From: Stegostoma tigrinum
Lineage: Eukaryota
NCBI RefSeq assembly: GCF_030684315.1
Contig: NC_081374.1
Coordinates: 33,516,630-33,580,629 of the forward strand
Length of the DNA: 64,000 nucleotides
Direction: 5' to 3'
In this document: positions 2,721 through 49,274 of the stretch, in pieces
How the letters are laid out: each line of letters begins with the position of its first letter
Position numbering within the stretch: the stretch's first letter is position 1
Made by a program: the position numbers and the translations under genes
Notes under the pieces: generated by a model
The model's database searches: none
What the model was told of the DNA's origin: nothing
The model's input: only the letters and a program-made list of their open reading frames with translations

Positions 2721-3500
2721 CCATTGTTCGTGAAACATGTAAAAAGTTTTTAAACAATATGTTAACACATTTCAATTTTCTGTAAGAGTGCCTAACTTCA
2801 GTGGGAAAGAAATCTATTGTAGTTTACCTCTTGAGGGATCCTTTCAGGGCTTTGAGCTATTTCTTTATTTATAATTACATGGTGCCTTCCATGAGCATGT
2901 AAATGATACTTGTAACATCACGTAAGGTTTGCAAGTAGCTGTTAAAAATGTTTAGTTTGAATATTTAATTACTTTCTATTGAATCCCTTTGTTCTGAATA
3001 TCTAGCTAAGCACTGAATTGTAACTAATTATACTGATCACATCAGTAAGCAATCAATCAGGAGTTATTGAGCTGACCTTGTGCTTTATTATCAATAAACA
3101 TAGTCATTAACTCAGGGAGACTCAGCTGACTTGAGAATGTCAATATAACACCCACACATTAAATTCATCCTGACCAATTCCTACAATTGATTTTATCAAG
3201 TCTTGCTACTGGAATAATTTTGTGCATAAACAGAACTAAAGAAAACCATAGACATTCAATCCATAAATCTTTGGAATTTGCTGAATTTTTCAAATGGTTT
3301 CAACAGAAGCCTGTATGAGCATGTCATATGTCCCATAATGTCTGAAAACTGATTTTAACGGCTGCTGTTACAGGGAGAGTAACTAATTTTTCTTGATATG
3401 CTAAATAACATTCTACGAAAAGTTGCCTATTCAAAAGGTTATAAAATGTGAGGCTGGATGAACACAGCAGGCCAAGCAGCATCTCAGGAGCACAAAAGCT

Positions 3501-3528
3501 GACGTTTCGGGCCGAGACCCTTCATCAG
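3501..3528 (-). ncRNA. Minimal hammerhead ribozyme motif (mirror copy)
   Basis: Reverse complement of gacgtttcgggccgagacccttcatcag = CTGATGA-A-GGGTCTCGGCCC-GAAA-C-GTC. Confidence 0.7.
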
Positions 3529-3752
3529 AGAGGGGGATGGGGGGAGGGAACTGGAATAAATAGGGAGAGAGGGGGAGGCGGACCGAAGATGGAGAGTAAA
3601 GAAGATAGGTGGAGAAGGTGTGGGTGGGGAGGTAGGGAGGGGATAGGTCAGTCCAGGGAAGACGGACAGGTCAAGCAGGTGGGATGAGGTTAGTAGGTAG
3701 CTGGGGGTGCGGCTTGGGGTGGGAGGAAGGGATGGGTGAGAGGAAGAACCGG

Positions 3753-4992
3753 TTAGGGAGGCAGAGACAGGTTGGACTGGTTTTGGGATGCAGTGGGTGG
3801 GGGGGAAGAGCTGGGCTGGTTGTGTGGTGCAGTGGGGGGAGGGGATGAACTGGGCTGGTTTAGGGATGCAGTGGGGGAAGGGGAGATTTTGAAACTGGTG
3901 AAGTCCACATTGATACCATATGGCTGCAGGGTTCCCAGGCGGAATATGAGTTGCTGTTCCTGCAACCTTCGGGTGGCATCATTGTGGCAGTGCAGGAGGC
4001 CCATGATGGACATGTCATCAAGAGAATGGGAGGGGGAGTGGAAATGGTTTGCGACTGGGAGGTGCAGTTGTTTGTTGCGAACTGAGCGGAGGTGTTCTGC
4101 AAAGCGGTCCCCAAGCCTCCGCTTGGTTTCCCCAATGTAGAGAAAGCCGCACCGGGTACAGTGGATGCAGTATACCACATTGGCAGATGTGCAGGTGAAC
4201 CTCTGCTTAATGTGGAATGTCATCTTGGGGCCTGGGATGGGGGTGAGGGAGGAGGTGTGGGGACAAGTGTAGCATTTCCTGCGGTTGCAGGGGAAGGTGC
4301 CGGGTGTGGTGGGGTTGGAGGGCAGTGTGGAGCGAACAAGGGAGTCACGGAGAGAGTGGTCTCTCCGGAAAGCAGACAGGGGTGGGGATGGAAAAATGTC
4401 TTGGGTGGTGGGGTCGGATTGTAAATGGCGGAAGTGTCGGAGGATAATGCGTTGTATCCGGAGGTTGGTAGGGTGGTGTGTGAGAACGAGGGGGATCCTC
4501 TTGGGGCGGTTGTGGCGGGGGCGGGGTGTGAGGGATGTGTCGCGGGAAATGCGGGAGACGCGGTCAAGGGCGTTCTCAATCACCGTGGGGGGGAAGTTGC
4601 GGTCCTTAAAGAACTTGGACATCTGGGATGTGCGGGAGTGGAATGTCTTATCGTGGGAGCAGATGCGGCGGAGGCGGAGGAATTGGGAATAGGGGATGGA
4701 ATTTTTGCAGGAGGGTGGGTGGGAGGAGGTGTATTCTAGGTAGCTGTGGGAGTCGGTGGGCTTGAAATGGACATCAGTTACAAGCTGGTTGCCTGAGATG
4801 GAGACTGAGAGGTCCAGGAAGGTGAGGGATGTGCTGGAGATGGCCCAGGTGAACTGAAGGTTGGGGTGGAAGGTGTTGGTGAAGTGGATGAACTGTTCGA
4901 GCTCCTCTGGGGAGCAAGAGGCGGCGCCGATACAGTCATCAATGTACCGGAGGAAGAGGTGGGGTTTGGGGCCTGTGTAGGTGCGGAAGATG
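3753..4992 (-). pseudogene. 5'-truncated but uninterrupted PLE ORF: RT C-terminal half (LRYIDD), thumb, Cys-rich linker, GIY-YIG endonuclease (left arm)
   Basis: ORF 3753..5042 contains FLRYIDD, FLDLSV, KPTDSHSYL, CNRRKCYTC, NVVYCIHCTRCGFLYIGET.RRLGDRFAEH, PVANHF and LGTLQPYGIN. The annotated start lies in the junction, so it is not a real start. Confidence 0.92.
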
Positions 4993-5053
4993 AACAGTCC
5001 ATCTTCCGCACCTACACAGGCCGAACAGTCCATCTTCCGCACCTACACAGGCC
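4992..5053 (+). repeat. Perfect 31-bp tandem duplication at the palindrome centre
   Basis: gaacagtccatcttccgcacctacacaggcc at 4992-5022 and 5023-5053. Confidence 0.95.
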
Positions 5054-6270
5054 CCAAACCCCACCTCTTCCTCTGGTACATTGATGACTGTATCGGCGCC
5101 GCCTCTTGCTCCCCAGAGGAGCTCGAACAGTTCATCCACTTCACCAACACCTTCCACCCCAACCTTCAGTTCACCTGGGCCATCTCCAGCACATCCCTCA
5201 CCTTCCTGGACCTCTCAGTCTCCATCTCAGGCAACCAGCTTGTAACTGATGTCCATTTCAAGCCCACCGACTCCCACAGCTACCTAGAATACACCTCCTC
5301 CCACCCACCCTCCTGCAAAAATTCCATCCCCTATTCCCAATTCCTCCGCCTCCGCCGCATCTGCTCCCACGATAAGACATTCCACTCCCGCACATCCCAG
5401 ATGTCCAAGTTCTTTAAGGACCGCAACTTCCCCCCCACGGTGATTGAGAACGCCCTTGACCGCGTCTCCCGCATTTCCCGCGACACATCCCTCACACCCC
5501 GCCCCCGCCACAACCGCCCCAAGAGGATCCCCCTCGTTCTCACACACCACCCTACCAACCTCCGGATACAACGCATTATCCTCCGACACTTCCGCCATTT
5601 ACAATCCGACCCCACCACCCAAGACATTTTTCCATCCCCACCCCTGTCTGCTTTCCGGAGAGACCACTCTCTCCGTGACTCCCTTGTTCGCTCCACACTG
5701 CCCTCCAACCCCACCACACCCGGCACCTTCCCCTGCAACCGCAGGAAATGCTACACTTGTCCCCACACCTCCTCCCTCACCCCCATCCCAGGCCCCAAGA
5801 TGACATTCCACATTAAGCAGAGGTTCACCTGCACATCTGCCAATGTGGTATACTGCATCCACTGTACCCGGTGCGGCTTTCTCTACATTGGGGAAACCAA
5901 GCGGAGGCTTGGGGACCGCTTTGCAGAACACCTCCGCTCAGTTCGCAACAAACAACTGCACCTCCCAGTCGCAAACCATTTCCACTCCCCCTCCCATTCT
6001 CTTGATGACATGTCCATCATGGGCCTCCTGCACTGCCACAATGATGCCACCCGAAGGTTGCAGGAACAGCAACTCATATTCCGCCTGGGAACCCTGCAGC
6101 CATATGGTATCAATGTGGACTTCACCAGTTTCAAAATCTCCCCTTCCCCCACTGCATCCCTAAACCAGCCCAGTTCATCCCCTCCCCCCACTGCACCACA
6201 CAACCAGCCCAGCTCTTCCCCCCCACCCACTGCATCCCAAAACCAGTCCAACCTGTCTCTGCCTCCCTAA
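5023..6270 (+). pseudogene. 5'-truncated but uninterrupted PLE ORF (right arm), LWYIDD variant
   Basis: ORF 4981..6270 is identical to the left-arm protein from IFRTYTG onward except R>W before YIDD. RT motifs 1-4 are absent. Confidence 0.92.
6146..6262 (+). repeat. Three diverged ~39-bp tandem units at the PLE ORF C-terminus (mirror at about 3761-3877)
   Basis: Encodes PTASLNQPSSSPP / PTAPHNQPSSSPP / PTASQNQSNLSLP. Confidence 0.8.
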
Positions 6271-6494
6271 CCGGTTCTTCCTCTCACCCATCCCTTCCTC
6301 CCACCCCAAGCCGCACCCCCAGCTACCTACTAACCTCATCCCACCTGCTTGACCTGTCCGTCTTCCCTGGACTGACCTATCCCCTCCCTACCTCCCCACC
6401 CACACCTTCTCCACCTATCTTCTTTACTCTCCATCTTCGGTCCGCCTCCCCCTCTCTCCCTATTTATTCCAGTTCCCTCCCCCCATCCCCCTCT

Positions 6495-6522
6495 CTGATG
6501 AAGGGTCTCGGCCCGAAACGTC
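6495..6522 (+). ncRNA. Minimal hammerhead ribozyme motif in PLE 3' UTR/pseudo-LTR
   Basis: CUGAUGA core, stem II GGGU/GCCC, GAAA, palindromic AC-GU stem III, GUC cleavage triplet (predicted cut after 6522). Local stem I is only about 2 bp, so activity is unproven. HHRs in PLEs are established knowledge. Confidence 0.7.
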
Positions 6523-6959
6523 AGCTTTTGTGCTCCTGAGATGCTGCTTGGCCTGCTGTGTTCATCCAGCCTCACATTTTATTATCTTGGAATCTCCAGC
6601 ATCTGCAGTTCCCATTATCTCTGATACTATTCAAAAGGTTAACCAAGTATCTATGTATTTTAGAAGGAATTCCACCCAAAGTTTTATTAAAACAACTCCA
6701 TTCAAAACAGAACCTAAACTAGCATGACACACCCTGCCATAGTTTTGACTGGAATATTATTTGTGTGAATGAAACCCAATGATCTCTGCACGCCGATGTT
6801 GCAGCGAGACTTCCATTGGGTTGTGTTCTTAACCATCTTTAGTTGTTGTATCAACTGTATCGCTTTCATCACAAGGTCAGAACTGAGTATATTTGGTGAT
6901 GATTACATGATGTTCAGCACCATTTGCAGTTCACCCTGTGTTGAAAACGGGTTGTGTCC

Positions 6960-8890
6960 ATATCTATACTTTAGAGGGAAATCAGGAGGGCAAAAAGGAG
7001 ACATGAGATAACTTTGGTAAATCGCGTTAAGGAAAATCCAAAGGAATTCTACAAATACGTTCAGGACAAAAGAGTATCTAGAGAGAGAATAGCCCCCTTG
7101 AAGGTCAGCAAGGCTGCCATGTTGTGGAACCTCAGGAGATGGGAGAGATAGAGATACTGAACAGGTATTTTGCATCATTGTTTACTGTGCAGAGGATATG
7201 GAAGATAAAGAGTGAGGGAAAATAAATAGTAATGTCTTGATAAATGTCCATATTTCAGAGGAGGAGATGCTGGATGTCTTAAAATGCATAAAGGTGGATA
7301 ATCCCTGGGACCTGATCTGGGGTACTCTGGAACTCTATGGGGCACTAGGGAAGTGATTGTTTGGTCCCTTGCTGAGCGGTTTGTATCATTGATAGCCACA
7401 GATGAGGTGCTGGAAGACTGGAGGTTGGCTAATGCAGTGCCATTACTTAAGGACGATGGGATGGAAAAGCCAGGTAATAGTCAGCGGTTGAGCTTGACAT
7501 CAGCAGTAGGCACGTTATTGGAGTAGATACTGAGGGACAGGGTTTACATGTATTTCAAAAGACAAGGACTGATTGGGGATAGTCAACATGTGTTTGTGTG
7601 TGAGAAAACGTTTTCTTACTCACTTGATTAAGTTGTTTTTTGATGAAGTAGAAGAAGATTGACAAAGTAAAGTGGTAGATGTGATTTATATGGACTTCAG
7701 GAAGACGTTCAACAAGGTTTCTCATGGTAGACTGATTGGCAACGTTATATCAAGTGGTATACAGGGCAGACTAAACATTTGGATACAGAACTGGCTCAAA
7801 TATAAGAGACAGAGGGTAGTGTTGGAGGGTTGTTTTTCAGGTTGTTGATCAGATGGGCCATGGGCCGAGGAGTGACATTTGGAGCTTAATCTCGATAAAT
7901 GTGAGGTGCTGCATTTTGGAAAGGCAAATCTGGGCAGAACTTGTACACTTAATGACAAGTCCAAGAGAGAGTTGCTGAACAAAGAAGTACAGGTTCATTG
8001 TTCCTTGAAAATGGAGCCCCAGGCAGTCAGCACAGTGAAGAATGCATTTGGCATGAGATAATGGGAACTGCAGATGCCGGAGAATCCAAGATAACAAAGT
8101 GTGAAGCTGGATGAACACAGCAGGTCAAGCAGCATCTCAGGAGTGCAAAAGCTGACGTTTCAGGCCTAGACCCTTCATCAGAGAGGGTGATGAAGGGTCT
8201 AGCCCGAAACGTCAGCTTTTGCGCTCCTGAGAAGCTGCTTGACCTGCTGTGTTCATCCAGCTTCACACTTTGTTATCAAGGCATTTGGTATGTTTGCCTT
8301 TATTGGTCAGTGCAATGAGTATGGGAGTTGGGAGATCATATTGCAGCCATACATGGCATTGGTTAGGCCACTTTCAGAGTACTGTATTCAGTTCTGATCT
8401 TCCTCCTATAGGAAGGAGTTGTAAAGGTTGAAAAAGTTCAGAAAAGATTTCCAAGAATGTTGCCAGTGTTGGAGGGTTTGATCTATAGAGAGCGGCTGGG
8501 GTTATTTTGCCTCAAGCATCGGAGGCTGAGAAGTGACCCTATAGAGGTGTATAAAATCATAAGGGGCTTAGATAGGGTGAATAGCCAAGGATTTTTCGCT
8601 GGGGTAGGGGAGTCTAAAACTAGGGCATAGGTTTAAGGTGCAAGGAGAAAGATTTAAAGGGAAGCAAAGGGGGCATTTTTTTTTCAGTGGTGCGTGTATA
8701 GAACGAGCTACCAGAGAAAGTGATTGATGCTGGTACAATTACAACATTTAAAAGGCATCTGGATGGGCATAATAGAGAGATTTTAGGGGATATGGGCAAA
8801 ATGCTGGCAAATGGGACTAGATGAATTTAAGATATCTAGAGAGCATGGATGAGTTGGACTGAAGGGCCTGTTTTCATGTGACACAGCTGT
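6960..8890 (+). mobile_element. CR1-type LINE ORF2 relic (RT to 3' UTR)
   Basis: KENPK.FY (aaggaaaatccaaaggaattctac), PGPD, YMDF.K.F.KV, WIQNWL, KCEVLHFGK and a 3' UTR ggactgaagggcctgtt. Frameshifted, with an internal deletion near 7845. Confidence 0.9.
8056..8277. mobile_element. Miniature fold-back PLE 3'-end insertion
   Basis: Arms at about 8090-8179 and 8188-8277, 34-nt tail on the left (8056-8089). TSD aatgcatttggcatg (8041-8055) / aaggcatttggtatg (8278-8292). Confidence 0.9.
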
Positions 8891-12804: not shown

Positions 12805-13520
12805 AAGCACAAAGAACAAAGAAAATTACAGCACAGGAACAGGCCCTTCAGCCCTCCAAGCCTGCGCCAATCCAGATCCTCTATCTAAACACGTCCCCTA
12901 TTTTCCAAGGATCTGTATTCCTCTGCTCCCTGCTCATTCATGTATCTGTCTAGATATATCTTAAATCACACTATCATGCCCGCCTCTACCACCTCCACTG
13001 GCAATGTGTTCCAGGCACCCACCACCCTCTGCGTAAAGAACTTTCCATGTATATCTCCCTTAAACTTTCCTCCTCTCACCTTGAAATCATGACTCCTAGT
13101 AATTGAGTCCCCCACTCTGGGGGGGAAAAAGCTTCTTGCTATCCACCCTGTCTATACCTCTCATAATTCTGCAGACCACAATCAGGTTCGGCCTCAGCCT
13201 CCATTTTTCTAATGTAAATAATTCTAACCTACTCAACATTTTTTCATAGCTAGTGCCCTCCATTTCAGGCAACATCCTGGTGAACCGCCTCTGCTTCCTG
13301 TCTAAAATATCCACGTCATTTTGGTAACATGGCGACCAGAACTGTACACAGCATTCCAAATGTAGTCGAACCAAAGTCCTATACAACTGTAACATGACCT
13401 GCCAACTCTTGTACTCGGTACTCCGTCCAGTGAATGAAAGCATGCTGTATGCCTTCTTGACCACTCTATCGACTTGCGTTGCCAGCTCCAGAGTACAATG
13501 GACCTGAACATCCAGATTGA
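12805..13520 (-). mobile_element. CR1-type LINE 3' fragment
   Basis: ORF 13096..13533 (LYRTLVRLHLECCVQFWSP, QRRFTRMLP) and a short-repeat tail aaagcacaaagaacaaag. Confidence 0.9.
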
Positions 13521-16500
13521 AGTCACTCTTCAATCCAACAGTGTAGATTGGGACTGGTTTGTGATCTCCATGACAACACCCGCTAATATTTTCTCCTTCA
13601 ATAACTTCCCTGAAAGTTAAAAGTTATAATCAGGCAGCACCTTTGACTCGCTCTGACTATGTTTACATATTTACTGGTTTAATTATTTGATTAGAAGAAT
13701 AAGGAAATATATCATCTTTTTGAGATGACTATTCAGACATCTAATGGTCTGATTCACTTTATCAATAGTTAAGGAAGAATCTTCTTGTTTGTACTGAATA
13801 ATCTTTCCTTTATTATTAGATTCTAATCAAGTATGTTCTCTTTATACAACAGCCAATTTTAAAACCTACATTCATTCCTAAGACACCATTATCTGAATAT
13901 TCCTTCAGCATTCCAGTACTGTAATCAGTCTCCTATTTAACTTCCAACAAATAGATTTGTCTAGTCATATTACAATGGAAACAAGTTATATTCTTTACAT
14001 CACCTTAAGGTTCTAACATTTCTCTTTTATTACTTTGGCCTCCTTTTTGTTTGTTCTCTGAAACTAGCACCTCTTCCAGTCACAAATTGTGTTTTTCTCC
14101 AATTTCTTTGTAGATTCCAGTATACCCATCTCCTCATAGGAAACTAATGTAGAATTTCTTACATATATGTCAGAGGTCCTGTTTCTCTAATGCTCAAAAC
14201 TAGATAGTTATCAAAACATATGTTACATTTACTGGAATATTATTTTTGAATTCTTCCATGATCAGAGTTGTCTTATGTTCTCAATTTTTTTTTTACTGAC
14301 TTCAGCGATCAAAACCACTAGCCCCACAGCATTTCTTATTCACTTGTATATTGTACAAATGTCTGATTTAGTTTTTTTTTCCCTTGAAGCTTGTTGATTG
14401 AAATTTACCACTACATGGTCTAGCTCATAAGCTTTGTGTATTGCTTTTTGAGCAGTTTCACATTTGACAGACTGTTCTTCTTACAAAGCCATGTGCACAG
14501 TCATAGCTGTGTCTCTGTAGAAAACTATTGTGACATTTAAGATCAGTACAAATTCCCATCACTTTGTTTAGTTATGTTTTCAAATGCAGCAGAAACATCT
14601 TGCAATTCTATTCTTGACAACTGTAGATGCTAAATGTAGATTTCTGATGAAATCAAATCAGTCATTAGAGTCAGATTCATCCTCCAAGCTAACACCTTCT
14701 ATCTATTCTTATTCTAAGCTTTTCTCTGTTCATTTCATGTGGGCTTTTTCTTTACCTCCTTATCATCCACTACTTTTTAAATTCTATTTCAGGTTGTTTT
14801 GTCTTTTTTTTTCAACCTGCCTTATTTCTATTTTTTTTCCTTTCTATTTCACTTTTCCTTTCAATGCAAATCATTTCATTTTTCTTTTTGTCTCTCCAAG
14901 TCATAGCCATGCCTTCACTAATTCTAGTGATCACACAGTTAATCCCTCCTTCTGACTCTGTTAGGTAATTACTTTAATCATCTCGTCTTTAGAAGGTCCA
15001 GGTTTCACTTCTAACTTCAATCTGTTTAAACACTTCATTTTAACCTGTGTCAAAGACATCAATAATCTGTTATTATGTCTCTTTCTCTCAGAAAAGCCTA
15101 AGCAACACTGAAACCCATTTTGACAGTCCAAGCTGTGCAATAAAGCTTACTACAACACACCTATGTTAAGTCCAGAGCCTCTGTCTATTTTCTTTTAGAA
15201 AGGACATAGATCTTTCTTAAATTCAATGAATTTCCAATCCTGGATAGACTTTATTGCAATGCCAGCTTACATGACTATTGGGGAAATCAGATACTAGAAT
15301 GAAACCTAGTTTGGTAGATCGAGGTTTTTTTGTTTGTTTAGTTAAATAACACAGTGGTTAGTCACTGAAACACAAGGTTGCAAACGTCCTTTAACAATTA
15401 GACATGCATTCATTGCACAAATGAGAGAAAAATAACAAACCAAGTGATAGATAGATACAGGAGGCATTTTAGAAATATCTTTACATGAGCAGCAGGACCT
15501 TTAACCTGTTTCACAACACTATCCATTATGGGCACTTAAGTCCAGAGAAATTATATTCACATCTTAACACTTTAAGTTGGTACTTAACTAATTCCTTCCA
15601 TTTTCCTTTCTAAGAATAGAGCCAATTGTACAATTCATACCTGTGTCTGCTGGCATGAACCTTTCATAGACCACAGGACCTCCACTTGCTCAATTTTAGT
15701 CAACTTGAAGACTCCATACAAGTTTTCTTGGCTTGCCAATCCGAAGGCCCTCTGTTTATTTGACTTATTTCCTTGGCTTGAACTGAAAAAAGTTGATTCT
15801 CCTGTTCTAAAGTCAAAACAAATGACTTTGTTCTGTTTACTCCACCCCCTTCTCATCCCCCTCGCTAGTAATATTGCTATTATAAACACCTTATCCATTA
15901 ACATGATGGTGGCTTTCCTAAGCACTTGGTTAGCCACATGCTTTCCTAGCGATAGCACATTTAAGTTACTGTTCCTAATGGCTTTCTGACCTTTCAAAAG
16001 GCATTCAGAAAACTGAGCAAAATCTCTCTTCCTCTATTTGGTTCTTGCGTTTTAAAAATAATATTACAAATGAGACATCTTACATCCCATATGGTCCTGG
16101 TTGAGTTTTGGGGTTGGTTGGGGGGGGAATGCATCAGCTTTCTCTTGGGAGGGGAAGATGCCTTTTAGGGTGTTCAAATATCCTTGAGATCGTTAAAAGT
16201 ACACATTGATTTAAAAACTGAATAAAGCTTACTGTCAAAGAACTGTCAAAAAGCCGTTGACACGCTCTCAAAGTCTCAGCTAAGGAAGTAAAATGAAATA
16301 AACATCAGTGCTGGTTATTTCACTGTCTGTTGACATCACCTCATTTAAGATTTGTGCTTTATGATTATAACCCCAATCTATCATACTCACGCTGAGCTCC
16401 TGTTACATGAGCAGTTTGATAGTCAACTTATAAGTACTTATAGAATGGAAGTGTTAGTTCTTTTTTCCAACTAATTGTTTGTGAAAGAAACAATATATTG

Positions 16501-18099: not shown

Positions 18100-19070
18100 T
18101 GACCAGCAGTGTTCTGCTGTGCCCAATGCTATTTGTCATTTATATAAATGATTTAGATCAGAATGTAGGATGCATGCTTAGTAAGCTTGCAGATAACACC
18201 AATATTAGTGGTATAATGGACAGTAAAGGTTATCTAAGAGCATAATGAGATCTTGATCCACTTGGCCGAGGAGTGGCAGATGGAATTTAATTTGGATAAA
18301 TGCATGGTGTTGCATTTTAAGATAAACCACGGCAGAACTTTCTTAGTTAATCATAGGACCCTGGTGAGTGTTGTCAAACAGAGAGGCCTAGGGGATCAGG
18401 TACATATTCCTTGAAATTGGTGTCACAGGTAGACTGTGGTAAAGAAGGCATCTGGCATGTTTGCCTTCAGTGTTCAGAACATTGGGTTTATGAGTTAGGA
18501 CGTCATGTTGTGGCTGAATAGGACATTGGTGAGACTACTTTTGGAGTACTGCATACAATTCTGGTTGCCCTTCTATAGGAAGCACATTATTGAATTGGAA
18601 GGGGTGCAGAAAAGATTTACAAGGATGTTACCGGGTCTGGAGGGCTTGTGTTACAAGGAGAGACTGGATAGGCTGGTACTTTCCTCGTTGGAGTGTAGGA
18701 GATTGAGGGGTGAACTTATTGAGGTTTATAGAGTCATGAGGGGCATCAATAAGGTGAATATCCAAGGTCTTTTCCCCAGGGTAAGGGAGTTCAAAACTAG
18801 AGGTCACAGGTTTAAGGTGAGAGGAGAAGGATTTAGAAAGGATCTGAGAGTCAACTTTTGTGCACAAGTGGTGACGTATATATGCAATGAACTGCCAGAG
18901 GAAGTGGTACAGATTCAACATTTAAAAGACATGTACATGGAGAACTACATGAATAGGAAAGAATGAGCAGAATATGGGCAAATGTGAGTAGCTTAGTTTG
19001 GGAAGTCTGGTTGGCATGGATGAATTGTACCAACTGGCCTGTTTTTGTGCTGTATGATTGAGTCTATCTA
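18100..19070 (+). mobile_element. CR1-type LINE 3' part
   Basis: ORF 18505..18966 (LVRLLLEYCIQFW, GVQKRFTRMLPGL, TRGHRFKV); upstream IYINDL and LADNT motifs. Confidence 0.9.
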
Positions 19071-19424
19071 AGCATTGCCTACTCATCCCTAGCACTATCT
19101 CAATGTATCTACATTACACCTTTACCAAAAATAATATTTAAGTAAAATTGAACATCGCAAACTCTACATTAGTTGCAAAGATTTTATTTAAAGAAAAACA
19201 TTAGTATCAATTAAGTGATTTGTTAAACATTACAGTGAATATGTTGCAATTTGTTGAGCATCATAAACTCAATAATGAGCAGTACTTGATTAATAAGATT
19301 TTATATAATTTAGGACAAGCTACACTGTGCACAGTGATGAACAGTAAATAGCCTGTTTTATATGCAGATAGTTAGTTGTACCTATGTCTCATAACAAAAG
19401 GCTTTCACTTTAACATGCTCTTAT

Positions 19425-21450
19425 GGCACACTGACCTTACCATAGCTGAGGCCAGGTGCCAACTCTCCTCCTACCGCCCCTTGAAACAAAACATCATCTC
19501 TCAAGCCATTCATAACTTCACCTCAGGTGACCTCCCACCCAAAGCCTCTAACCTTTTTATTCCCCACCCCTGCACCACCCGTTTCTATCTCCTTCCCAAA
19601 ATCCACAGACCTGACTGTCTCAGCTGACCCATTATCTCTGCCTGCTCCTGCCCCACTGAGCCTATCTCTGCTTACCCTGACCCTGTTTTCTCCTCCCCGG
19701 TCCAGGAACTTCCCAACTGCATCAGGGACACCAACCACACCCTCCACTTCCTCCAAGACTTCTAATTCCATGGTCCCCAACTCCTCATCCCCACTACGGA
19801 CATGCAATCCCTACACACTTGTATTCCCCATGTGGATAACCTAAAAGATTGCTTCTTCCTCTCCCGCAGTCCCAAGTAGTTCCCCACCACTGACCCCCTC
19901 ATCCGCTTAACTGAACTCCTTCTTAGCCTCAACAACTTCTCCTTTAACTCCGTTCACTTCCTGCGGACTAAGGGGGTGGCCAGGGGCACCCACATGAACC
20001 CAAGCTATGCCTGCCTCTGTTTAAGATATGTAGAACAGTCCCTCTTCCGTAGCTACACTGGCACTATCCCCCACCTCTTCCTCCATTTCATTGACTGTAT
20101 CGGTGTTCCCCTGCGAAGCTTGGACAGTTCATCAACTTTACTAGCACCTTCCACCCCAACCGCAAATTCACCTGGACCATCTCCAATGCCTCCCTCTCCT
20201 CTTTGAACATCTCTGTCTCCATCTCTGGGGACTGCCTCAAAACTGGCATCTATTACAAGCCCACTGACTCCCACAGCTACCTAGACTACGCCTCCTCTCG
20301 CCCACCCTCCTGCAAGAAGAGCCTTCCCCTAGTCCCAATTCCTCTGCCTCGACTGCATCGTGGAGTGTTCCGCTCATCACATTCCCGGATGTCCTCCTAT
20401 TTCAAGGACCGTAACTTCACACCCTCTGGTGATTAAAAATGCCCTCAACCACATCTCTTGTGTTTGCTGTATATCCGCCCTCACATCCCCACCCCCAACA
20501 AAAATAAAACCAGAATCCCCCTTGGTCTCACATCACCCCACCAACCTCCTCATCCAACGTAATATTCTCCGCCACATCCACCATCTACAATCCGACCCCA
20601 CAACTAAAGGTATATTTCCCTCCCCATTTCCATCTGCGTTTTATAGGGATTGCGCTCTCACTGTGTGACTACTTTGTCAGCTCCACACTCCCTACTAGCC
20701 CCAGCACCTTTCCTTGCAACTGCAGGAAGTGCTACACCTGCCCCTACACCTCCCCCCCACATCACCTCCATCCAAGGCACAAAACAAACCTTCCACATTA
20801 GACAAGGATACACCTGGACATTTGTCAATGTGGTCTATTTTATCTGCTGCTCCTCATCTGGCTTCTGCTACATCGGTGAGACCTAGCATGAGACTTGCAA
20901 GGCATTTTGTAGAGCACCTTCACTCGGTTCACAACAAAGCATTTTAACTCTCACTGCCACTCCCTGGGTGACATGTTTCTCCTGGGGATCCTCCAGTGTC
21001 ACAATGATGCCAGCTGCAACCTGCAGGAGCAGCAACTCATATTCCGCCTCAGAAGCCTACAGCCCGATGGTTCCCCTAAACGTGGATATTACTAGTTTCA
21101 AAATCTCCCCACCGTCAGCCTCATCCCATGACCACCCCTCCCTCTCATCTCCACCTCCTTGACTTGACACAACCTGTCCATCTTCTCTCCCACCTATCTG
21201 CCCTTCCCACCTCACTGACCGATCCCCTACCTGCACTCAGCTAGCACTATCCCATCTACCTTCCCCAGCCCTATCCCTCTTCTCTCTCTCTTTTTATTTC
21301 TGGGTTCCCTTCCCCCTCACCACTTCTGAAGAAGGGTCCCAACCCGAAACATCAACTTTCCTGCTCCTCTGATGCTGCCTGGCCTGCTGTGTTCCTCCAG
21401 CTCCACACTGTGTTATCTCTGACTCCAGCATCTGCAGTTCTTATTATCCC
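19425..21450 (+). mobile_element. Older, non-inverted, 5'-truncated PLE (RT, GIY-YIG, 3' UTR with HHR-like motif)
   Basis: Frameshifted peptides FYLLPKIHRPD, GTHMNPSYACL, YKPTDSHSYL, NVVYFICC..YIGET. ctgaagaagggtcccaacccgaaacatc at about 21326. Possible TSD core ttaacatg (19410, 21454). Confidence 0.92.
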
Positions 21451-26203: not shown

Positions 26204-26560
26204 ACAAGAGCAGGACGTTCAGTTTTTCAAGCCAATTCTACCATTCAATAAAATCATAGCTTATCTGATTGTAACATCAACTCTACATTCCTGTGTGTCC
26301 CTGATTAATCTTTCAACCTCTTAGTTATCAAGAATCTATTCATTCCTGCCCTAAAAATATTTTTAATGTTTCTGTATCCACTGCCTTTTAAGGAAGGAAA
26401 TTCCAAAGATTCACAAAGATATTTTCTTCATTTGTCTTAAATGGCACTGACTTATTTTAAACTGTGAAGTTCTAGATTCTTTCCACAAGATGAAGCATTG
26501 GCATCCATACTGTTAAGTCCCCTCAGGATTTTGTGTTTCAGTCAACGCAATCTTAACATT
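26204..26560 (-). mobile_element. Old CR1 3' UTR fragment (host of the 25993 insertion)
   Basis: ccattcaataaaatcatagcttatctg...ttccaaagattcaca...ctagattc, a typical reverse-strand CR1 3' end. Confidence 0.7.
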
Positions 26561-29710: not shown

Positions 29711-29930
29711 AGAGATAGCAGGTACTGCACACGCTCGAGTCAGTCAACCCTGTGTGGAGCTGGGCAAACAGCAGATCAGGCAGCATCAGAGGAACAGGCT
29801 AGTCAATGTTTTGGATTGGGACCCTTCATCAGAAGGGATCTTTTGAACAATCTCAATCCAAAACGTTGACTTTCCCGTTCCTCCTCTGCTGCCTGACCTG
29901 TTGTGTTCCTCCAGCTCCACACTGTGTTGA
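29711..29930. mobile_element. Older miniature fold-back PLE 3'-end insertion
   Basis: Minus arm with tail 29711-29833 (ending gggacccttcatcaga); plus arm about 29851-29930 (tctcaatccaaaacgttgac...ccagctccacactgtgttgac). No convincing TSD. Confidence 0.75.
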
Positions 29931-30702
29931 CATTGGGAAAACTTGGGGTTTTTTTGAAACTGTTGGCATTAGTTGCCTTTTGCTTTTCTTCCTGTCACCA
30001 ACATGTTTCCCTCTGACCTTGCCTGTTTATCTAAGATAAACTTTTTTCAAATTGAGTGTCAGGACCCAAGCAGGGTCAGAAGCACCATTGGCCACTATGC
30101 AGCTCAACTCACTTACTCCTGATAGTCACAGGTCTTTTAGTCTCTCTGCCCACTCCTCCCATTAGTTTTCTCACTCCAATGCCCACTCTCATTACTCAGA
30201 GGGGTCACAGCAATTTTCAAGCCCCAGAAAAGGGCCACAATGTGGGAAAAACATGGGAAGCACTGGTCTCAGGCATAACTCTGAAATTAAATAATCCATT
30301 TGGTTCTCCTCTACATTGTAACTGTAGCATGAGCCAAACTTCCTTCTTTTCATGCACACTGTGTCATTAGAATATTAAATCCTTCACACAATGTTTAGTA
30401 CTCAATGTGTATTTGTCACTCAGGTTAGCTCATAATAAATTGGAGGATTCTATGTAGAAAGTATAAACAACCTTGAACGTATTTATATTCCTTATATGTG
30501 TTTATATAACATTAACGGAAATACTCAAACAATCTCCCATCTGTTGATATGTTTCATGTCGAATTTGTTTGTTTATGAGGAAATTTGCATATTTCTATCA
30601 AGTTTGCACCAAATTATAGAAGTTTCAATTCCTGAGTAGAACAGTGAAATTGCTTCTGAAAAATATAGAATTCAATTTCTGAAAGCAGCAACTAATAAGT
30701 GA

Positions 30703-30786
30703 TAATAAGTTGTAGAGCACAGCTGGCCAAGCAGCATCAGAGGAGCAGGAAAGCTGACGTTTCAGGTCTGGACCCTTCTTGAAGAA
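30703..30786 (-). mobile_element. PLE 3'-end fragment truncated at the HHR motif
   Basis: gcagcatcagaggagcaggaaagctgacgtttcaggtctggacccttctt; direct repeat taataagtga at 30693 and 30787. Confidence 0.75.
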
Positions 30787-33705
30787 TAATAAGTGAAATC
30801 CTTTGACATTAGCTATGTATTTTGTTCTTTAGCAAGATATAGATGCTGCTTTTTTTAAAAAAACAGGAATAAAAGTTATGACTAGTTTTTTCTCTGGCTC
30901 TGCTTATAGCATTTGGCTTTCATCATAGGCACAACAGTGATTTATATAAAGTATTTAACTTTGACAGAGTTTTTTTCATGACTGCAGCCTCCCTTTTGAC
31001 ACTGACATTGAAGAGCTCTATAATCTATGGGTGGGGGTTTGATGGTGGGGGAAAACTCAAAGCAACGTTGCCACAAGAATAGAATGTGATGATTTTACAG
31101 CAAAAAGAGAGCAGTGAAATCGAGGAACTCACTACCACTGGGACTAGTTGAGGCAAATCGTATTGATGTATTTAAATGAAAGTGAACAAGCGCACAGCAG
31201 AAAAGGGAATAAAGAACTATGCTAATGGCGTTGGATGACAAAGGATTAAGGATGCTGCTAATACTGAAAAGGATTGGTTGGAGCAGCTAGTCTGCTCTGT
31301 GCTGTGCCTTCTATGTTTTTTTAAAAAAAATCAATGACAGAAAAAGCATAAGAATAATATTTGAAAATTAAATGTAGATTTCTATAATAATTGCTATTGT
31401 GTATGTATACTCTGATAACATTAAGAGATTCCTGGAAAGGCCATTTGTCAAGATGACTCATGGCCATGGAGATATAAATGAGCTCCCGACCTCTTTCAAT
31501 TTCCAGGGTTGGAGGTGGTTGCATCATGTAAGTGGACCAATGTGAGTGAGATACTTGTTTCAGCCGACGAGCACCTTTACTTCATCATTTACTAGTCATG
31601 CTTTCCTTTTTCTTTTGGAAAAATGTCACACTTTAAATTTACCACTTTCCCAAACACACTCCTGGGGGAATCTAGCCCTTCAAAGAAAAATGGGTCAAAC
31701 TTGTATGAAATATAATCCCAGCACCACAGCTCATTGCATTACACAATGGCATTGGAGGCATAGGAAGTGAAAATGCTAGCGCTTATAACAAATGAAGTCA
31801 TGCTGTCAGTTTCACCTGTGTGTGAAACACCCATCAGGTACCCCACAAGAAACAACTCAATACAGTATCAGACTGTATTTTGTCTTGGCTGAAAAGGTCC
31901 AATTGTTTATCAAAAAATAGTAGCCTTCAGTGTTAGCATCCTAGGAATTTTAAGGCTTTCATCTTTGTATTATAAAGCTTAGGGGAAAAGAGTGGCTGTT
32001 TTATTTTTCTTAAATTTGAATCAAATCTTGTATCTTTCAAAATGACACTGATGATTTGCCAAGTTAACACTCAAGAATATATTTCAAAAACGAATCACTC
32101 GTATCTGCAACCTATAACCACATTTTGCCTGAATAGCCAAAGCTCCACCTTCCTCCCATACTAGAACAATAAACAAGAGATATTTTAATTTCCTTACATA
32201 CTTATGCAATATTTTTGAACAACCATACTTCTGCAGGTTAAATGGAGAAAAATATGCTGATATTTGGAAACCTATATCACAGATTGGAGCTGTCTCTATA
32301 AAAACTAATTATTGCCTCTTGGAGATGATCTGGCCTATCCTTAGAAAAATTGATATGAATCTTCTGCAATTGTACAAAAATATGTTTTGATGTATTAATT
32401 AAACACTTTTGGCTGGTAACTTCCATAAATATTAACTGCATTTATTTATCTTTCATACAGTCTGTAAAGTAGAAAATATTACCTAGATGGCTTTAAATTA
32501 CAGATACAAATTCTCTGATTTTTAAATATAGTCAATGGGATGCTGAAAATGTATTAAATTTGTTTGGTATCTAATTGCTGTGGTTAAGTAGAAAGACTCA
32601 TCATGTTATTATTTAAATATGGACGTTCAAGTAAACTTTTTTTCTCCCATTTTGATGCTTTATTCTTTGCTGTATAGAGAGCAAACAAAGGCATAACAGC
32701 TGAAGCATGCGATGCCTTCTCAATCTCCCTGGTAAAATTTTATACCATTTCTTTCACCAACTTCCCAATTCTTCCCAAAGAATCCGCAAGAAAAAATAAA
32801 GCGGTAATTGCACTATTTTGTTCTTATTAAATTTTGTATCACTTTCGAGCATGGAAACTGAAAGTAGGCAGTGCCCACTGAGACTGACATAGACGAATCC
32901 TTTTATATTTTGAAATAATTCTCTAGGCTGAGATTTCTTAAAATGTAACATGCAATGATATCAAATGGCTCCAAAATTGAATATTTCTTTTCTCTTGAAT
33001 CTGCACTGCTTCTGTGCTATTTTAATACAAGGGTTGACTTTTTATGAAAAACTGCTAGAAAAGAACTTGCTTGAAATTGTTTACAGTATAAGAGGAAGTT
33101 ATTTATTCTACCATCTCCAAGTTAATGGCATGTTTAAACTAATCCCACCACAATGGACTTTGGCTAAACCATTTCCTGTAGCAAAGAATTCTATACTCTG
33201 ATTCCCATGAGGAATAAAATATCCTAACCATTGTTTTTCCTTTCTTTTGAGGCATTTTAAATTAATAAACACTTAATTTAAAAGTCTGGATATGAACAAT
33301 GACAGTATTAAAGAGATTATTTTAAATATCAACATCCAAAGAATATGTATTTTATGTCTATAAAACATATGGTTGTTCTTTTTCTAAAATAATTGGTGAT
33401 TAAGTTAATATTACATTAGTAGCCTCAAAACTGTTGAAAGTTCCAACCCATTCTGGTCAAAAGTGAAGGAAGGTGGAGAGGTGTGATAAACCAAAAAAAA
33501 AGCAGATGTTTTTGAGGGCATTTGGGACACAGTTGAAATGTCCCTATCTCTGACCACATGGCCAAGGTTGAAATCCCACCTGTTCTGGGCATGTTGTAAT
33601 ATGTCTGAACATGTTGATTTAAAAATTATCTGGATAGGTAAGATTGAAGCTGATCCATGTGCTGAATTATAGTTCGGCAATAAAACAAGTGCAATTTTGT
33701 TGTAA

Positions 33706-33798
33706 GATATAACAGTATGGAGCTGGAGGAACACAGCAGGTCAGGCAGCATCAGGGGAGCAGGAAAGCTGATGTTTCGGGTTGGGACCCTTCTTCAGA
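33706..33798 (-). mobile_element. PLE 3'-end fragment truncated just upstream of the HHR motif
   Basis: ggagctggaggaacacagcagg...gatgtttcgggttgggacccttcttcaga. Confidence 0.8.
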
Positions 33799-37206: not shown

Positions 37207-37457
37207 TTTAGAAAACAACTGCAGATAGTGGAAATGAGAAACAGAAATAGGAAAAAAGAAATTGCTAGGAAAACTCAACAAGTCTGGCAGCATCTGTGGC
37301 GAGCAAGCAGAGTTAACATTTCAGGCCCAGTAACTCTTCTTCAGAATGGACTCACTGAGCCTGCAATTGAAGAAAGGTCACAGGGCTCCAAACATTAATG
37401 CTGCTTTCTCTGCACAGAGGCTGCCAGATGTGCTGAGGTTTTCTAGCAATTTCTCTT
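37207..37457. mobile_element. Miniature fold-back insertion of a second PLE family
   Basis: gaaattgctaggaaaactcaacaagtctggcagcatctgtg (about 37258-37345) is inverted to cacagaggctgccagatgtgctgaggttttctagcaatttc (about 37368-37455); tail on the left. TSD ttcaaatgctca (37195-37206) / ttcaaatactca (37458-37469). Confidence 0.8.
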
Positions 37458-37524
37458 TTCAAATACTCAATATCAGAGGTTTTTTTTACAACTCATGCTA
37501 TTTTAGCTACAGAATGGTATCCAT

Positions 37525-43702: not shown

Positions 43703-45322
43703 AATGGAGCAAATAACTGCAGATGCTGGAATATGTGCTAAAAACAAACACTGGTGGTGATTACAGCAGGTTAGTCAGCATGCATGGAGAGAAAGCGAGC
43801 TAAAATTTCAGGTCTAGATGAATCTTTGTCAGAGCTGACATGAAGTGTGGAGATAATAAAATGTGAGGCTGGATGAACACAGCAGGCCAAGCAGCATCTC
43901 AGGAGCACAAAAGCTGCTTGGCCTGCTGTGTTCATCCAGCCTCACATTTTATTATCTTGGAATTCTCCAGCATCTGCAGTTCCCATTATCTATGAAGTGT
44001 GGAGAGGCAGTTTTCATGTAATAGTTGGGTGAGAGGGGGTGGGGACTTTGGAATGCTGGGGGAGAAAGAATGTTGATAGTTCAGATTAAGCGGTCAGAAT
44101 GCGAGAATGGCAGAACAATGGCAGTTGTAACCACCAGGTTAAAAAGAACAGACCATCCAACTGAGTGTGGGGGACAGTAATGCAACAAGTAAACTAAAGG
44201 AAAGGAATGGGAATAGGTTCACAATTTGAAGGTGTTGAACTCCATGTTAAGTGCAGAAGCTTGTAATCTTCCTAGTCTGAAGATGAGATGTTGTCCCTCC
44301 AATTTGTGCTGTGATTCACTGGAACATTGCAGAATGCTGAGGATAGACAAGTGGGCATGCAAACAGCACATTACAGTATTAAAATGACTGGCTTTGGGAA
44401 GGTCAGGATCATGCTTGCACACAGACCAGTGGCAATCTGTAAAGCAGTCATCCAGTGTGTGTTTGGTTTATCCAACGTAGAATAGGCCACATTGGGTGCA
44501 ATGAATACAATACACAAGACTGGAGGAGGTACACATGAAATGCTGCTTCACCTGGAAAAACTGTTTAGGCCCTTGGATGGTGAGCGGGGAGGAGGGGAAG
44601 GGGCAGGAGTTGCATTTTCTGCAGTTACTTGGGGAGGTGCGGAGGGAAGGCCAGGTGGTATTGATGGTGGGGAAACAGACTAGGGTGTCCTGGAGGGAAT
44701 AATCCCTACAAAATGCAGATGGGGAGTGAGGGGAAGATGTGTTTGATGTTGATGTTCTGTTGGATTTATCTGAAATGGCCAAGAATGAACATTTGAATGT
44801 GCGGGCTGGTAGGATGAAATGTGAAGAAATGGGGGACCCAATCACGTGGAAGTATGGGTCACAGGTCGGATGTGGTTGAGGGCCCTGTCAATCACAGTGG
44901 GTGGGAAGTCACGTTTATAGAAGGAGGAAGCCATGTCAGCAGCACCGTGTGAATGTGGCACCATCCAAACAGATACAGTGTAGGCGAAGGAACTGAGAGA
45001 ATAGGATGGAATCCTTGCCAGATGTGGAGTGTGACAAGCTATAGGTAGCTATGGGAATCGGTAGCTTTATAATGGATGGCATTGGACAGTTTATTCCTCA
45101 AAATTGGAACAGAGATGTCAAGGGAAGGAAAGAATGTGCCGGAAATGGGCAATATGAAAGTCTTATGGGGGTGGAAATTGGAGGCAAAATGTACAAATTT
45201 TTAAAGGTCCAGGCAGGAGCACGAAGTGGCACCAAAACAGTCAGCAAAGTAACAAGAATTTTGGGGAGGGGGATAGGGGCAATCTAGGACTGGAACAAGG
45301 ATTGTTCCTCACACCCCAGAGG
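43703..45322 (-). mobile_element. Older 5'-truncated PLE (third family): RT C-terminus, GIY-YIG, 3' UTR
   Basis: ORF fragments LVYCIHCTQCGLFYVG and KLEGQHLIFRLGRLQ..LNMEF; reverse strand near 45240-45310 gives EQSLFQS..YFADCFGATSCS. Confidence 0.9.
43854..43991. mobile_element. Very young miniature fold-back PLE insertion (same subfamily as 3441-6626)
   Basis: taataaaatgtgaggctggatgaacacagcaggccaagcagc and its exact inverse; tail on the right. Perfect 14-bp TSD atgaagtgtggaga (43840-43853, 43992-44005). Confidence 0.92.
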
Positions 45323-45685
45323 CTAAGGTGTTAGCGGCACAATTTCAGCACCATTCACAATTCCTCAGAAAATTAAACAGCTTATGCTGCCAGACATGAA
45401 CAACATTTGATATGTCGCAATTAGCTTTCATGCCGCACAGGTATCAGGCAATTTACATCTCCTAAGAGAGAATTTAACCATCCCCTCTTGACATTCCTGA
45501 CATTGGTATTACAATTTCTGAATCCTTCACTATTGACATCCTAGGTGGTACCATTGACCAGAAACTGAATTGGACCAGCCAAATAAATACTACGGCTATA
45601 AGAGCAGATAAGAGGCTAGGGATTATATGGTGCATAGCTCCCCTTCGGTCTCCCTAATGCCTATCCACCATCTAAAAGGAACAAG

Positions 45686-46440: not shown

Positions 46441-47263
46441 GGAAGTCAGGAATATTATGGGAATACTTTCTACTTTTTGGATGGGTTCAACTTCAACAAA
46501 ATTTTTGTTGCATGTCACATTGAGGTCAAAGCTGACAGCTTGATTGGCACCCAATCCACCACCTTCAACAGTGTGTCATCCACTATCGACGTTCTGTAGC
46601 AACAGTGTGATCTGCTGTAATTCATGAAGGCTCCTTTTGATATTGCCATCCAACTGTGTACTGTGATTCAGAAGGACAAAGACATCAGATGAATGGGAAT
46701 ATCATCACTTGCAAGTTTCTCTTCAAGTCATACGACATCTTGAATTAAACTTTATTAGTATTCCTTTACTGGTGCTAGGTCAATATCTTGGAAATCTTCC
46801 TGACAGCAGTGTGGAAGTATTTACATTGCAAAGAGCAGCAGTAATTCAAGACGGCAGCTCACCAACACCTTCTCAAAGGATATGAAGAATTGGTAATGAA
46901 TGCTGGTCAAGCCCACATTTCATAAATGAATAAAAAACAGTCGTTACAAATTACTCTATAACATGCTAAATGAAGTGAGTTTAACTATTTGCATGCTGAC
47001 AAGGACATTTTTATAAACCAGTAATATGCCAAAACCATTTCTACCCAATTTATGCCTTAGAAGGGCCGTAGCTGTTGCAAATCTTTTTAGATTAATTTTT
47101 TTATGTGGTGGAACATTTATCATTAGGTTATAATTTTTGTATTAGAATTCTCCATTCTGTGGCCCACTGGCTGTGATTTCTTGATCATTACAATGAATAG
47201 AGGTGTATTGTGGACTGTTGAACACAGAATTAAGACATTCCATTCCAAATTTATATTTGATAT

Positions 47264-47824
47264 TGTAATGGACCAGACTGAGTCCCTTCAAAACATGTCA
47301 AGGGGATAGACTAAATCTAAACTTCTTATTTTAAAGGCAAGTGCCAAGTGCTGCATTCTGGATGCAATTTGATTGGTCAAACTATCAGGCTTGAAGCAGA
47401 ATAAAAAAATAAAGAAAAGAATTGGCTTGACTAAAACTCTATTGAAATACTTAAAACAAACTACTTTTTAACTGTGTTCCAGTAGTAAATCCCATAAGCA
47501 CACCCTTAGCAATGGCAAATTCAGGAAGATAGATTGCCTCCCGTGCAAAGCTATAGCTAAGAGATACAGAGGTGTAGCAGTTTTCACAACCGGAGAGCTG
47601 CTGAAAGCTAAACTGAAAATCCTGGTTCTATGGGAGCTTGACCCTGTCAATGCAAGTTGCTTCTACTGTTCCAAGCTTTTTAATAAAAAAAAATGCCCCA
47701 AGGCGTCACAAGCTCTTCACTTCATTTGCTTGACACACACCGCTTGGTGTCCCTGTCTCAATCTTCTCTTCTTTTCCAAAACAAAGCAATAAAATACACC
47801 CCCTAAAGCCGCAGTACCATCACA
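47264..47824. mobile_element. Probable solo LTR (561 bp)
   Basis: TG...CA termini with imperfect inverted ends tgtaatgg/ccatcaca; flanks atat/atgt (4-bp TSD with one mismatch). Confidence 0.6.
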
Positions 47825-47842
47825 ATGTCAATATTGAACAAG

Positions 47843-48055
47843 AGATAACGGGAACTGCAGATGCTGAAGAATCCGAGATAACAAAGTGTGAAGCTGGATG
47901 AACGCAGCAGGCCAAGCAGCATCTTAGGAGCACATATGCTGGCTTTTCAGGTCTCAACCCTTTCTGATGAAGGGCCTGGGCCTGAAATGTCAGCTTTTGT
48001 GCTCCTAAGATGCTGCTTGGCCTGCTGTGTTCATCCAGCTCCACAGTTTGTTATC
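47843..48055. mobile_element. Miniature fold-back PLE 3'-end insertion
   Basis: Tail on the left; arms meet at caaccctt|tctgatgaaggg (about 47962). Perfect 15-bp TSD tcaatattgaacaag (47828-47842, 48056-48070). Confidence 0.92.
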
Positions 48056-49274
48056 TCAATATTGAACAAGTTAGTCTGCATGTAGATAACCTATTTTCAC
48101 ACAAGATCAAATAAATTTCTATAGTTGGTTTTACTGTGATAATTTTATTCTTCACTTTCTACTTATTTTACTTAATTTATAAAATCTTTTAAGCATAAAT
48201 GTTGCATGTGTTTTCTTGATGGCATTAATGTGTTATGATCTCATTCAGATAAACAAGGTGAAGACAGGTGCATACAAGTTAAGATGGTGAGCACATTGTA
48301 GTAAGTTAGATGTTCCATTTGGTCATGCTCTGCAGCTGAAGACGTAAATTGTTTTACAGTTACAAAATTTATTATACCTGAGGCACCATTATTTACAAAT
48401 ATTACAGGATAAAGTATTGATGACAGCCAAAGGGGATGAACAGCTGAATTCAGTTTGGATTCAACTTACCTAAAAATTTAGAATATTTGAGCTGAAGGAG
48501 AATGTGTATTTCTTTTTAAAACAGCATGTGAAATAAGTGATATTAATATTAATTTATATTCATAAAAGTCTCAATAGTATTTGGTAATCTAGATAGTTAG
48601 GAATAGAGTATTGTGTATATACAGATCTGTGTTACTCCCTGAAAGGGCCGTGCTGTTTAATTCCAAAATTCTGGATTTTGCTTGAATATGGATTGATTTG
48701 CATACAGAAATAACTCTGCAATTATTGATGGCGTACTTTTTTTTAACAATGCAGGTTTTGCTTTTTGGTATGTTGTTGAAAAATTATTGCTGGTTAAACC
48801 AATAGATGCAAGAGCTGCATATGAATTTTTCTTTTCTCCTTCATCTCTGAGATGTAGACATTCCCTAAGGCCAATCATCTTTGAGAAGGTGATGATGAGC
48901 ATCCATATTGATCTGCTGCAGCCATGTGATGTAGTTATGCAGTTAAGGGAAACTTTCAGGCTTTTGATCAATGGTGAAGGAATAGCATCATATTTCTGAA
49001 AAAGTATAGTGTGGGATTCCAGCAACATTGGTAGTAGTGCTAATAACAAATGTCTGTAGTTTTATGGGTTTCCGTGGAACATGGACGTGTGACAGTGAGA
49101 GAAAGTTAACTGAACACTCATTTGTTGTTGTCCCGTTGTCACAGCCGAATGAATACTTCTTCCCTTTTCTCTCAAATCTGACAACGAAATCTCATCATTA
49201 TTTAGAGGCTGAAGGTTTAGAGCAGACTTTTACGTGCCACTAAATGTCACGGATATTTCAGAACTGTTTTGTAG

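Follow-up and report, generated by a model that had tools for sequence, protein, structure and literature searches.

Inverted insertions of a Penelope-like element in Stegostoma tigrinum suggest reverse transcription primed from both ends of the target site

In a 64,000-nt stretch of the Stegostoma tigrinum genome (assembly GCF_030684315.1, contig NC_081374.1, forward-strand positions 33,516,630–33,580,629; hereafter the window), we analyzed five insertions that belong to one family among the Penelope-like elements (PLEs), the sister group of telomerase, in which two inverted copies of the element lie head to head. Comparison with further copies from the same genome suggests, with a probability of about 0.7, that such insertions arise via two-ended target-primed reverse transcription of same-source RNA, the two cDNAs then being joined. 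Element positions are counted from window base 6586, the usual 3′ end of the arms without a tail (position 0); +35 is 6621, −63 is 6523, and −95 is 6491. A predicted staggered cut of ~12–15 nt would leave two 3′-OH ends, one of which would prime at the end of a short tail (~+35) and the other ~35 nt upstream (~0), on RNA of the same source. The two cDNAs would be joined at their growing ends and the second strands filled in, and one productive end alone would give a single copy with a target-site duplication (TSD). We infer the endonuclease geometry, the priming on RNA, and the joining of the cDNAs; the copies themselves show one TSD per pair, one arm per start site, an arm of either kind reaching farther, source variants common to both arms, and junctions that overlap by 1–5 nt, are blunt, or hold short inserts. 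The layout had already been published. An earlier reading of the window (the original prediction) had offered snap-back of nascent cDNA and priming of both 3′-OH ends as options; snap-back fails, as does the accompanying rule of equal truncation, and the two-ended option holds.

Insertion ends and the source of the arms

Self-comparison of the window recovered all five palindromes, and the predicted layout was verified in each: head-to-head arms with outward 3′ ends, a single TSD of 12–15 nt, and a tail on one arm. Insertion 1 is bounded by identical 15-nt TSD copies (3427–3441 and 6627–6641). It comprises a minus-strand tail-less arm (3442–4992), which was delimited by comparison with the right arm and holds the 3′ part of the element with its 3′ end facing left, a turn-around read from the sequence as a 31-nt direct duplication of the right-arm start (4992–5022, plus strand), and a plus-strand tailed arm (5023–6626) with a 5′-truncated open reading frame (ORF), a pseudo-long terminal repeat (pLTR), and a 40-nt tail. 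The arms are 1,552 nt long, with 1 mismatch between them. The ORF of the tailed arm covers the end of the reverse transcriptase (RT), the thumb, a CX4CxxC linker, and GIY-YIG, with its stop at 6270. The tail (6587–6626, plus strand) is bounded by the putative RT start sites at ~0 (6586) and ~+35 (6621), both of which follow the 7-nt motif ATTATCT (6581–6587 and 6614–6620, 33 nt apart).

Insertion 2 (8044–8292; TSD 8044–8055/8281–8292, 12 nt with 1 mismatch) has its tailed arm on the left (minus strand), its tail-less arm on the right (plus strand), and 5′ ends near −102/−90; insertion 3 (25980–26216; TSD 25980–25992/26204–26216, 13 nt with 1 mismatch) has the tail-less arm on the left, the tailed arm on the right, and 5′ ends at −89/−82. 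The tail-less arm of insertion 4 (43840–44005; TSD 43840–43853/43992–44005, 14 nt, exact) has its 5′ end at −64/−63, the predicted ribozyme cut, 21 nt beyond that of the tailed arm (−43). Insertion 5 (47828–48070; TSD 47828–47842/48056–48070, 15 nt, exact) belongs to an older subfamily, with the tailed arm on the left, the tail-less arm on the right, and 5′ ends at −85/−97. A one-armed copy of the same family (53008–53241, plus strand, −179 to +33), with an 11-nt TSD, is a single-ended outcome of the insertion process. Two further hairpins (29743–29931 and 37251–37460) are ~75% palindromic and carry variant hammerhead cores; their flanks were checked and gave no convincing TSD, and they belong to older or related Penelope-like families. 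The predicted frequency of at least 7 per 64 kb is not sustained, as untargeted DNA gave ~45 pairs per Mb or ~3 per 64 kb.

The further copies came from a first sample of 1.48 Mb, of which 714 kb was untargeted and the remainder lay around the first 100 tail-motif matches and 30 long-copy matches, and from its enlargement to 1.80 Mb with 914 kb untargeted; genome-wide counts were obtained by pattern search. We identified 141 head-to-head pairs, 113 of them with at least 85% identity in both arms. A single TSD surrounded the whole pair, rather than each arm separately, in 95 of the 113, compared with 0 of 226 swapped-flank controls, supporting the claim that the architecture is not due to chance; TSD length was 12–17 nt in 90 of the 95. 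The 28 pairs below 85% identity and the 18 pairs without a TSD stand outside the end statistics, and the 95-pair set was partly picked by the tail motif. An assembly artefact is ruled out by the TSDs, the differences between arms, and the spread over subfamilies. The untargeted 914 kb contained 41 inverted pairs (37 with a TSD) and 38 unpaired 3′ ends, some within complex insertions, which bears out a routine pathway of this family; inverted pairs would make up about half of its insertions and, by rough extrapolation, number some 140,000 genome-wide.

Exactly one arm was tailed in all 95 TSD pairs, and one tail was present in 36 of the 37 untargeted TSD pairs (p = 3e-10 if start sites were freely chosen). 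Precise 3′ ends were mapped for 83 of the 95 pairs (12 were without): in 73 of them the tailed arm ended between +32 and +40, and in 69 the end of the tail-less arm lay no more than 5 nt from 0. That the tail-less end always lies this close to a fixed site is true of these 69 pairs and not of outliers, which extend to −29 and −45. Isolated single copies, from which 38 matches beginning at −46 had been excluded as tandem satellite, carried a TSD in 24 of 64 cases (control, 0 of 90), and those with a TSD terminate at either site, 0 or +35. As tail-less singles carry their own TSD, position 0 is a priming site and not a block. Tandem junctions upstream of −63 in two loci (L245 and L252) also use +3 and +38. 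Opposite a tail-less long arm, a tail-only partner arm was found in 2 of the 24 TSD singles (matches of 20 and 12 nt; 12 nt was reached by 1 of 400 random stretches), and another was recognized by eye in L236. Three two-tailed pairs occurred, all among the 18 pairs without a TSD, and such pairs may have formed by a different route. Both arms are tailed, with no detectable TSD, in pairs C1_3236912, C1_6041833 (4198–8862), and C25 47909–49374, and in L219. Microhomology between target and primer was 1.4 nt versus 0.4–0.5 nt in shuffled data, a weak signal given that greedy TSD calling can about double the null.

The 5′ ends bear on the first option of the original prediction, in which one strand snaps back and is copied to a block, as in the published self-priming on an antisense template (PMC3846280; here and below, statements on the literature refer to the available portions of the cited sources). 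Such fold-back accounts for source variants common to both arms and for the 30 of 95 pairs whose 5′ ends lie at most 5 nt apart, but it needs a tailed arm that contains the other arm. The tail-less arm extended farther 5′ by more than 5 nt in 34 of the 95 pairs and the tailed arm in 31. At differences of at least 20 nt, the tail-less arm was the longer in 24 and the tailed arm in 23, and at more than 300 nt, in 11 and 14, respectively; among untargeted pairs, each was longer in 15, and 8 were at most 5 nt apart. Pure fold-back is contradicted for about a third of the pairs, and also by the tail-less singles with their own TSD; single cases may have formed this way, and as a general mechanism we consider it highly improbable. 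Either arm being longer and single copies ending at either site support the second option, the priming of both 3′-OH ends.

The main rival for arm formation is a mixture of the two, in which both nicks are primed on RNA, giving the fixed outer ends, but one cDNA alone grows long and snaps back, and the strand copied from it pairs with the short cDNA at the opposite nick. It would yield one tail per pair with either arm longer, the coupling of long with long arms described below, near-identical young arms (0–3 differences over 700–2,400 nt in the six youngest pairs), and overlaps of 1 nt or more, as found in 70 of 126 junctions. The other 56 junctions have no overlap (16 are blunt and 40 contain inserts of up to 56 nt), and tail-only partner arms share no sequence with the opposite arm, points that, with the turn-arounds at −63 considered below, make the mixed pathway unlikely.

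The original prediction had regarded the process as independent of length. With 14 of the 95 pairs removed as coming from loci chosen for long arms, we counted 23 long/long, 5 mixed, and 53 short/short pairs (p = 7e-15): short arms are paired with short and long with long. Near-equal truncation of the two arms, with 5′ ends differing by no more than 10% or 20 nt, was seen in 50 of the 95 pairs overall but in just 5 of the 37 having an arm longer than 130 nt, and the rule fails for long copies. For the 23 long/long pairs, the correlation between the 5′ ends of the two arms was rho 0.40 (p = 0.056); the 1.5-kb palindrome of the window, with its near-equal arms, is atypical. Under two-ended priming, short pairs would result from priming at a pLTR-tail near the RNA 5′ end, with run-off at a capped start at ~−95 or at a hammerhead cut at −63, and long pairs from priming at the downstream pLTR, with largely independent truncation.

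The two arms of a pair agreed at 393 of 433 subfamily sites, compared with 60% after shuffling, and had 95 rare variants in common over 24,616 nt; in the control, the nearest arm from outside the pair shared 9 over 15,444 nt. In older pairs, each arm has gone on to change by itself (230 and 237 private changes). These shared variants point to one source locus or to one RNA, without choice between them. Should one RNA serve for both arms, the simplest order would be priming at 0 first and then at +35 on the free RNA, displacing the first cDNA.

Several observations count against two-ended priming of same-source RNA. One untargeted TSD pair had no tail at all, and the 70 overlapping junctions are what snap-back priming would also give. 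By nearest-neighbor distance, the arms of a pair were closer to each other than to the best other arm in just 13 of 27 long pairs, which leaves the same molecule and the same source locus unseparated. The evidence, for priming at both ends and for the RNA ends considered next, is genomic sequence throughout.

5′ ends near −95 and at −63

Short-arm 5′ ends accumulate in two places. Among 116 short-arm ends, 58 fell at −84 to −98 (6488–6502 on the plus strand of the window), and only 3 of 190 ends of all arms fell at −99 to −130. Capped full-length L1 insertions are marked by an extra G (PMC11702581). Of the 15 unpartnered ends between −99 and −91, 11 had a G before them (p = 5e-4; 31 older TT-type anchors excluded), compared with 6 of the 24 at −63. 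The sequence at 6461–6468, 30 nt upstream of ~−95, is TATA-like. Because of the wall of ends, the extra G, and the TATA-like stretch, a capped RNA start near −95 is likely.

The second place lies beside a minimal type I hammerhead core, which a motif scan located in the pLTR at 6495–6522 (plus strand) and in other copies. From the standard hammerhead core, the cut is predicted between 6522 and 6523, making −63 the first base of the 3′ product, and the predicted cut is likely to be an RNA end. Genome-wide, 709 exact symmetric turn-arounds were centered at −63, where −63 to −60 form a 4-nt palindrome, compared with 240, 39, and 23 at other 4-nt palindromes (−76, −68, and −36). Snap-back of a single cDNA would demand self-priming from a 1-bp stem with a 2-nt loop for these zero-loop centers, which suit two cDNAs annealing by four bases. 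One-sided 5′ ends at −61 to −65 numbered 606, 554, 1,045, 635, and 241 in the raw counts, the pattern for −63 being stricter, and ~1,100, 3,300, 660, and 120 at −62 to −65 after correction for chance matches in the flanks. Of 30 loci inspected for −63, 24 start there. The partners of −63 ends passed −64 in 3 of 15 cases, compared with 75% of all arms, and the 58 short pairs split at −64 as 16/8/3/31 (p = 7e-6). The 15 symmetric loci examined come from no fewer than three subfamily backgrounds, and their 3′ ends vary, which indicates that the −63 center recurs.

Recurrence also bears on the idea that the hairpins are one unit resembling a miniature inverted-repeat transposable element (MITE), amplified whole. 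Some centers do recur hundreds of times, but there are dozens of distinct centers, sizes are continuous up to 5.7 kb, and TSDs are 12–17 nt long; a MITE would be a uniform unit with fixed ends and center and a short fixed TSD. With the −63 center found in several backgrounds and with variable 3′ ends, this explanation is contradicted and has hardly any chance of being right, in agreement with the original prediction.

A separate rival concerns the 5′ peaks, which could reflect RT pausing where the RNA is structured or at a C-rich stretch, aided by the 4-nt palindrome. A hairpin is predicted to cover −91 to −62, and −76, which lies within stem II, is enriched as well as the palindromic −63. A stall at the hairpin base, however, predicts −61; the −63 peak remains when the junctions are not palindromic and falls ~25-fold over the two bases upstream; the partners of −63 ends seldom pass −64; the extra G is found near −95 yet not at −63; and long arms run through both sites. 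We rate pausing as a rather unlikely explanation of the peaks.

The reading of both peaks as RNA ends has evidence against it too. The G signal comes from 15 ends, and the figure for partnered arms (19 of 43) is confounded; the flank correction presumes random flanks; and 6 of the 30 inspected −63 loci are not clean ends, 2 aligning to −68 and 4 continuing upstream. Folding gave no hammerhead-like minimum-energy structure but a plain hairpin at −91 to −62 with z ~0, at which RT stalling could add to the −63 peak. Helix I of the predicted hammerhead has 2 bp by eye, and an Rfam search of the region returned no match.

A stronger version of two-ended priming, to which we would give even odds, is that one RNA is copied twice, from both nicked strands, at two fixed and non-interchangeable start sites, and that the thousands of insertions stopping at the hammerhead cut are germline evidence of PLE hammerhead cleavage in vivo, the 3′ product and the capped transcript both being working templates.

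In four loci (L230, L231, L248, and L249), a piece of the ORF that lies downstream of the tail is fused in direct orientation onto −63, its end at the join being at unit positions ~184, 109, 1117, and 426, respectively. Such joins fit either an RT jump after run-off at the cut end or read-through of an RNA circle that was closed at the ribozyme cut.

The element and other features of the window

The source family is an endonuclease-bearing (EN+) PLE with a Neptune/Nematis-type linker. A full copy at locus L178 consists of a 634-nt partial tandem followed by a 3,621-nt unit with a single ORF of 1,076 aa; partial tandems of this kind form the pLTRs of EN+ PLEs, and the tail, whose sequence continues to where the ORF of the following unit begins, is the beginning of that tandem unit. 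The translation shows DKG, RT, the CX4CxxC linker, and a CCHH-type C-terminal GIY-YIG region (definitions as in PMC8557442). The linker between RT and endonuclease agrees with the CX2-5CxxC pattern common to Neptune and Nematis, and the family may belong to either. Pfam matched RVT_1 at residues 575–702 (E 3.5e-5) and GIY-YIG at 936–976 (E 0.0015), both under the Pfam cut-offs, and gave no match for the window ORF fragment alone. N-terminal to the RT, residues ~170–300 are of low complexity and rich in proline and threonine; they include short tandem repeats, of which L151 and L158 have different numbers.

An exact match to a 33-nt motif of the tail occurs 69,220 times in the 3.2-Gb genome, and RNA folding showed no special fold in the tail. 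A tandem array of 50-nt units from −46 to −10 of the element (L028:474–1229, and likewise near G000:C1:2,940,000) appears to be a satellite derived from the pLTR. An insertion bias toward microsatellites has been hypothesized for the Neptune clade (PMC8557442). No such bias was seen here: the sequence of the 95 TSDs is mixed and unremarkable, and the bases beside the nicks have only a weak purine bias.

Elsewhere in the window, older copies of related Penelope-like families, or fragments of such copies, occur at 19422–21448, 30715–30778, 33704–33798, and 44436–45254, with 64–87% identity. Fragments at 6950–8480, 13096–13623, 18499–18966, and 53976–55062 resemble CR1/L2-type LINE reverse transcriptase, and insertion 2 lies within one of them. 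Tandem repeats with minus-strand open frames at 62665–63498 are unrelated to the Penelope insertions.

Relation to known systems

In L1 twin priming, copying of the RNA starts from both DNA ends, and end joining with microhomology links the resulting cDNAs; the site at which the second primer anneals is upstream and varies, giving inversion without duplication. The insertions described here resemble it in the apparent priming of the RNA by both DNA ends, the microhomology at the join, and the extra G at capped ends. They differ, as originally claimed, in that one stretch is duplicated; the two starts are fixed and 35 nt apart, each arm contains the same 3′ part as the other, and L1-type twin priming was rejected.

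Inverted-pLTR insertions of EN+ PLEs are known from Pen2a_Av of Adineta vaga (PMC3846280) and Penelope of D. virilis (PMC2377424; overview in PMC8557442, Fig. 2 legend). These have in common with our cases a head-to-head inverted, 5′-truncated copy, a one-sided tail of 30–40 nt, one TSD around the whole unit, and partial tandems. The TSDs are 12–17 nt here versus 8–10 nt in the rotifer cases, and the self-priming model proposed for the rotifer (PMC3846280) does not fit the insertion ends here. Inverted pairs are also abundant here: they make up about half of the insertions and, by rough extrapolation, number on the order of 10^5, enough for tests of mechanism. The origin of inverted copies and one-sided tails in PLEs is called undefined in PMC8557442.

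The closest biochemical parallel, and one that favors two-ended priming, is Poseidon of Anolis carolinensis (PAc), for which both strands are cut and extended in vitro, with two internal start sites bounding the tail (PMC11167929). PAc and the present element share these two start sites, a predicted dimer, and a hammerhead in the pLTR; PAc belongs to the Penelope/Poseidon clade without a cysteine linker, whereas the element here has CX4CxxC. Three features of that system speak against our reading: the start sites show no strand asymmetry in vitro, whereas here each insertion has one of each; ribozyme cleavage was not required in vitro, whereas here a sharp peak stands at the predicted cut; and no RNA-seq reads ended at the PAc cut site. 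The portion of the PAc study covered (PMC11167929) offers no explanation of the inverted copy.

Non-LTR retrozymes are short noncoding type I hammerhead repeats tied to Penelope pLTRs (bioRxiv 10.64898/2026.07.22.740005; PMC7761336). They are tandem units amplified as such, whereas the hairpins here would arise from a coding element as by-products, a new one with every insertion. Two sources state that these hammerheads lack evidence in vivo (PMC4209133, PMC7761336), and the in vivo role of minimal PLE hammerheads is called a mystery (PMC7761336); the parts consulted of PMC8782182 and of the retrozyme preprint add nothing further on insertion ends. We found neither a rule of one start per strand nor a genomic peak at a hammerhead cut in this literature, on which older subscription reviews and supplements might bear.

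The layout itself is not new, and the value of these insertions lies in a testable mechanistic record. Their end statistics exclude the self-priming model as published and give a strict rule of one start site per strand, and the exact RNA position −63 is directly testable in the existing anole in vitro system. If the stronger version of two-ended priming is correct, the genome of S. tigrinum would preserve the Penelope integration cycle in a record of population scale.

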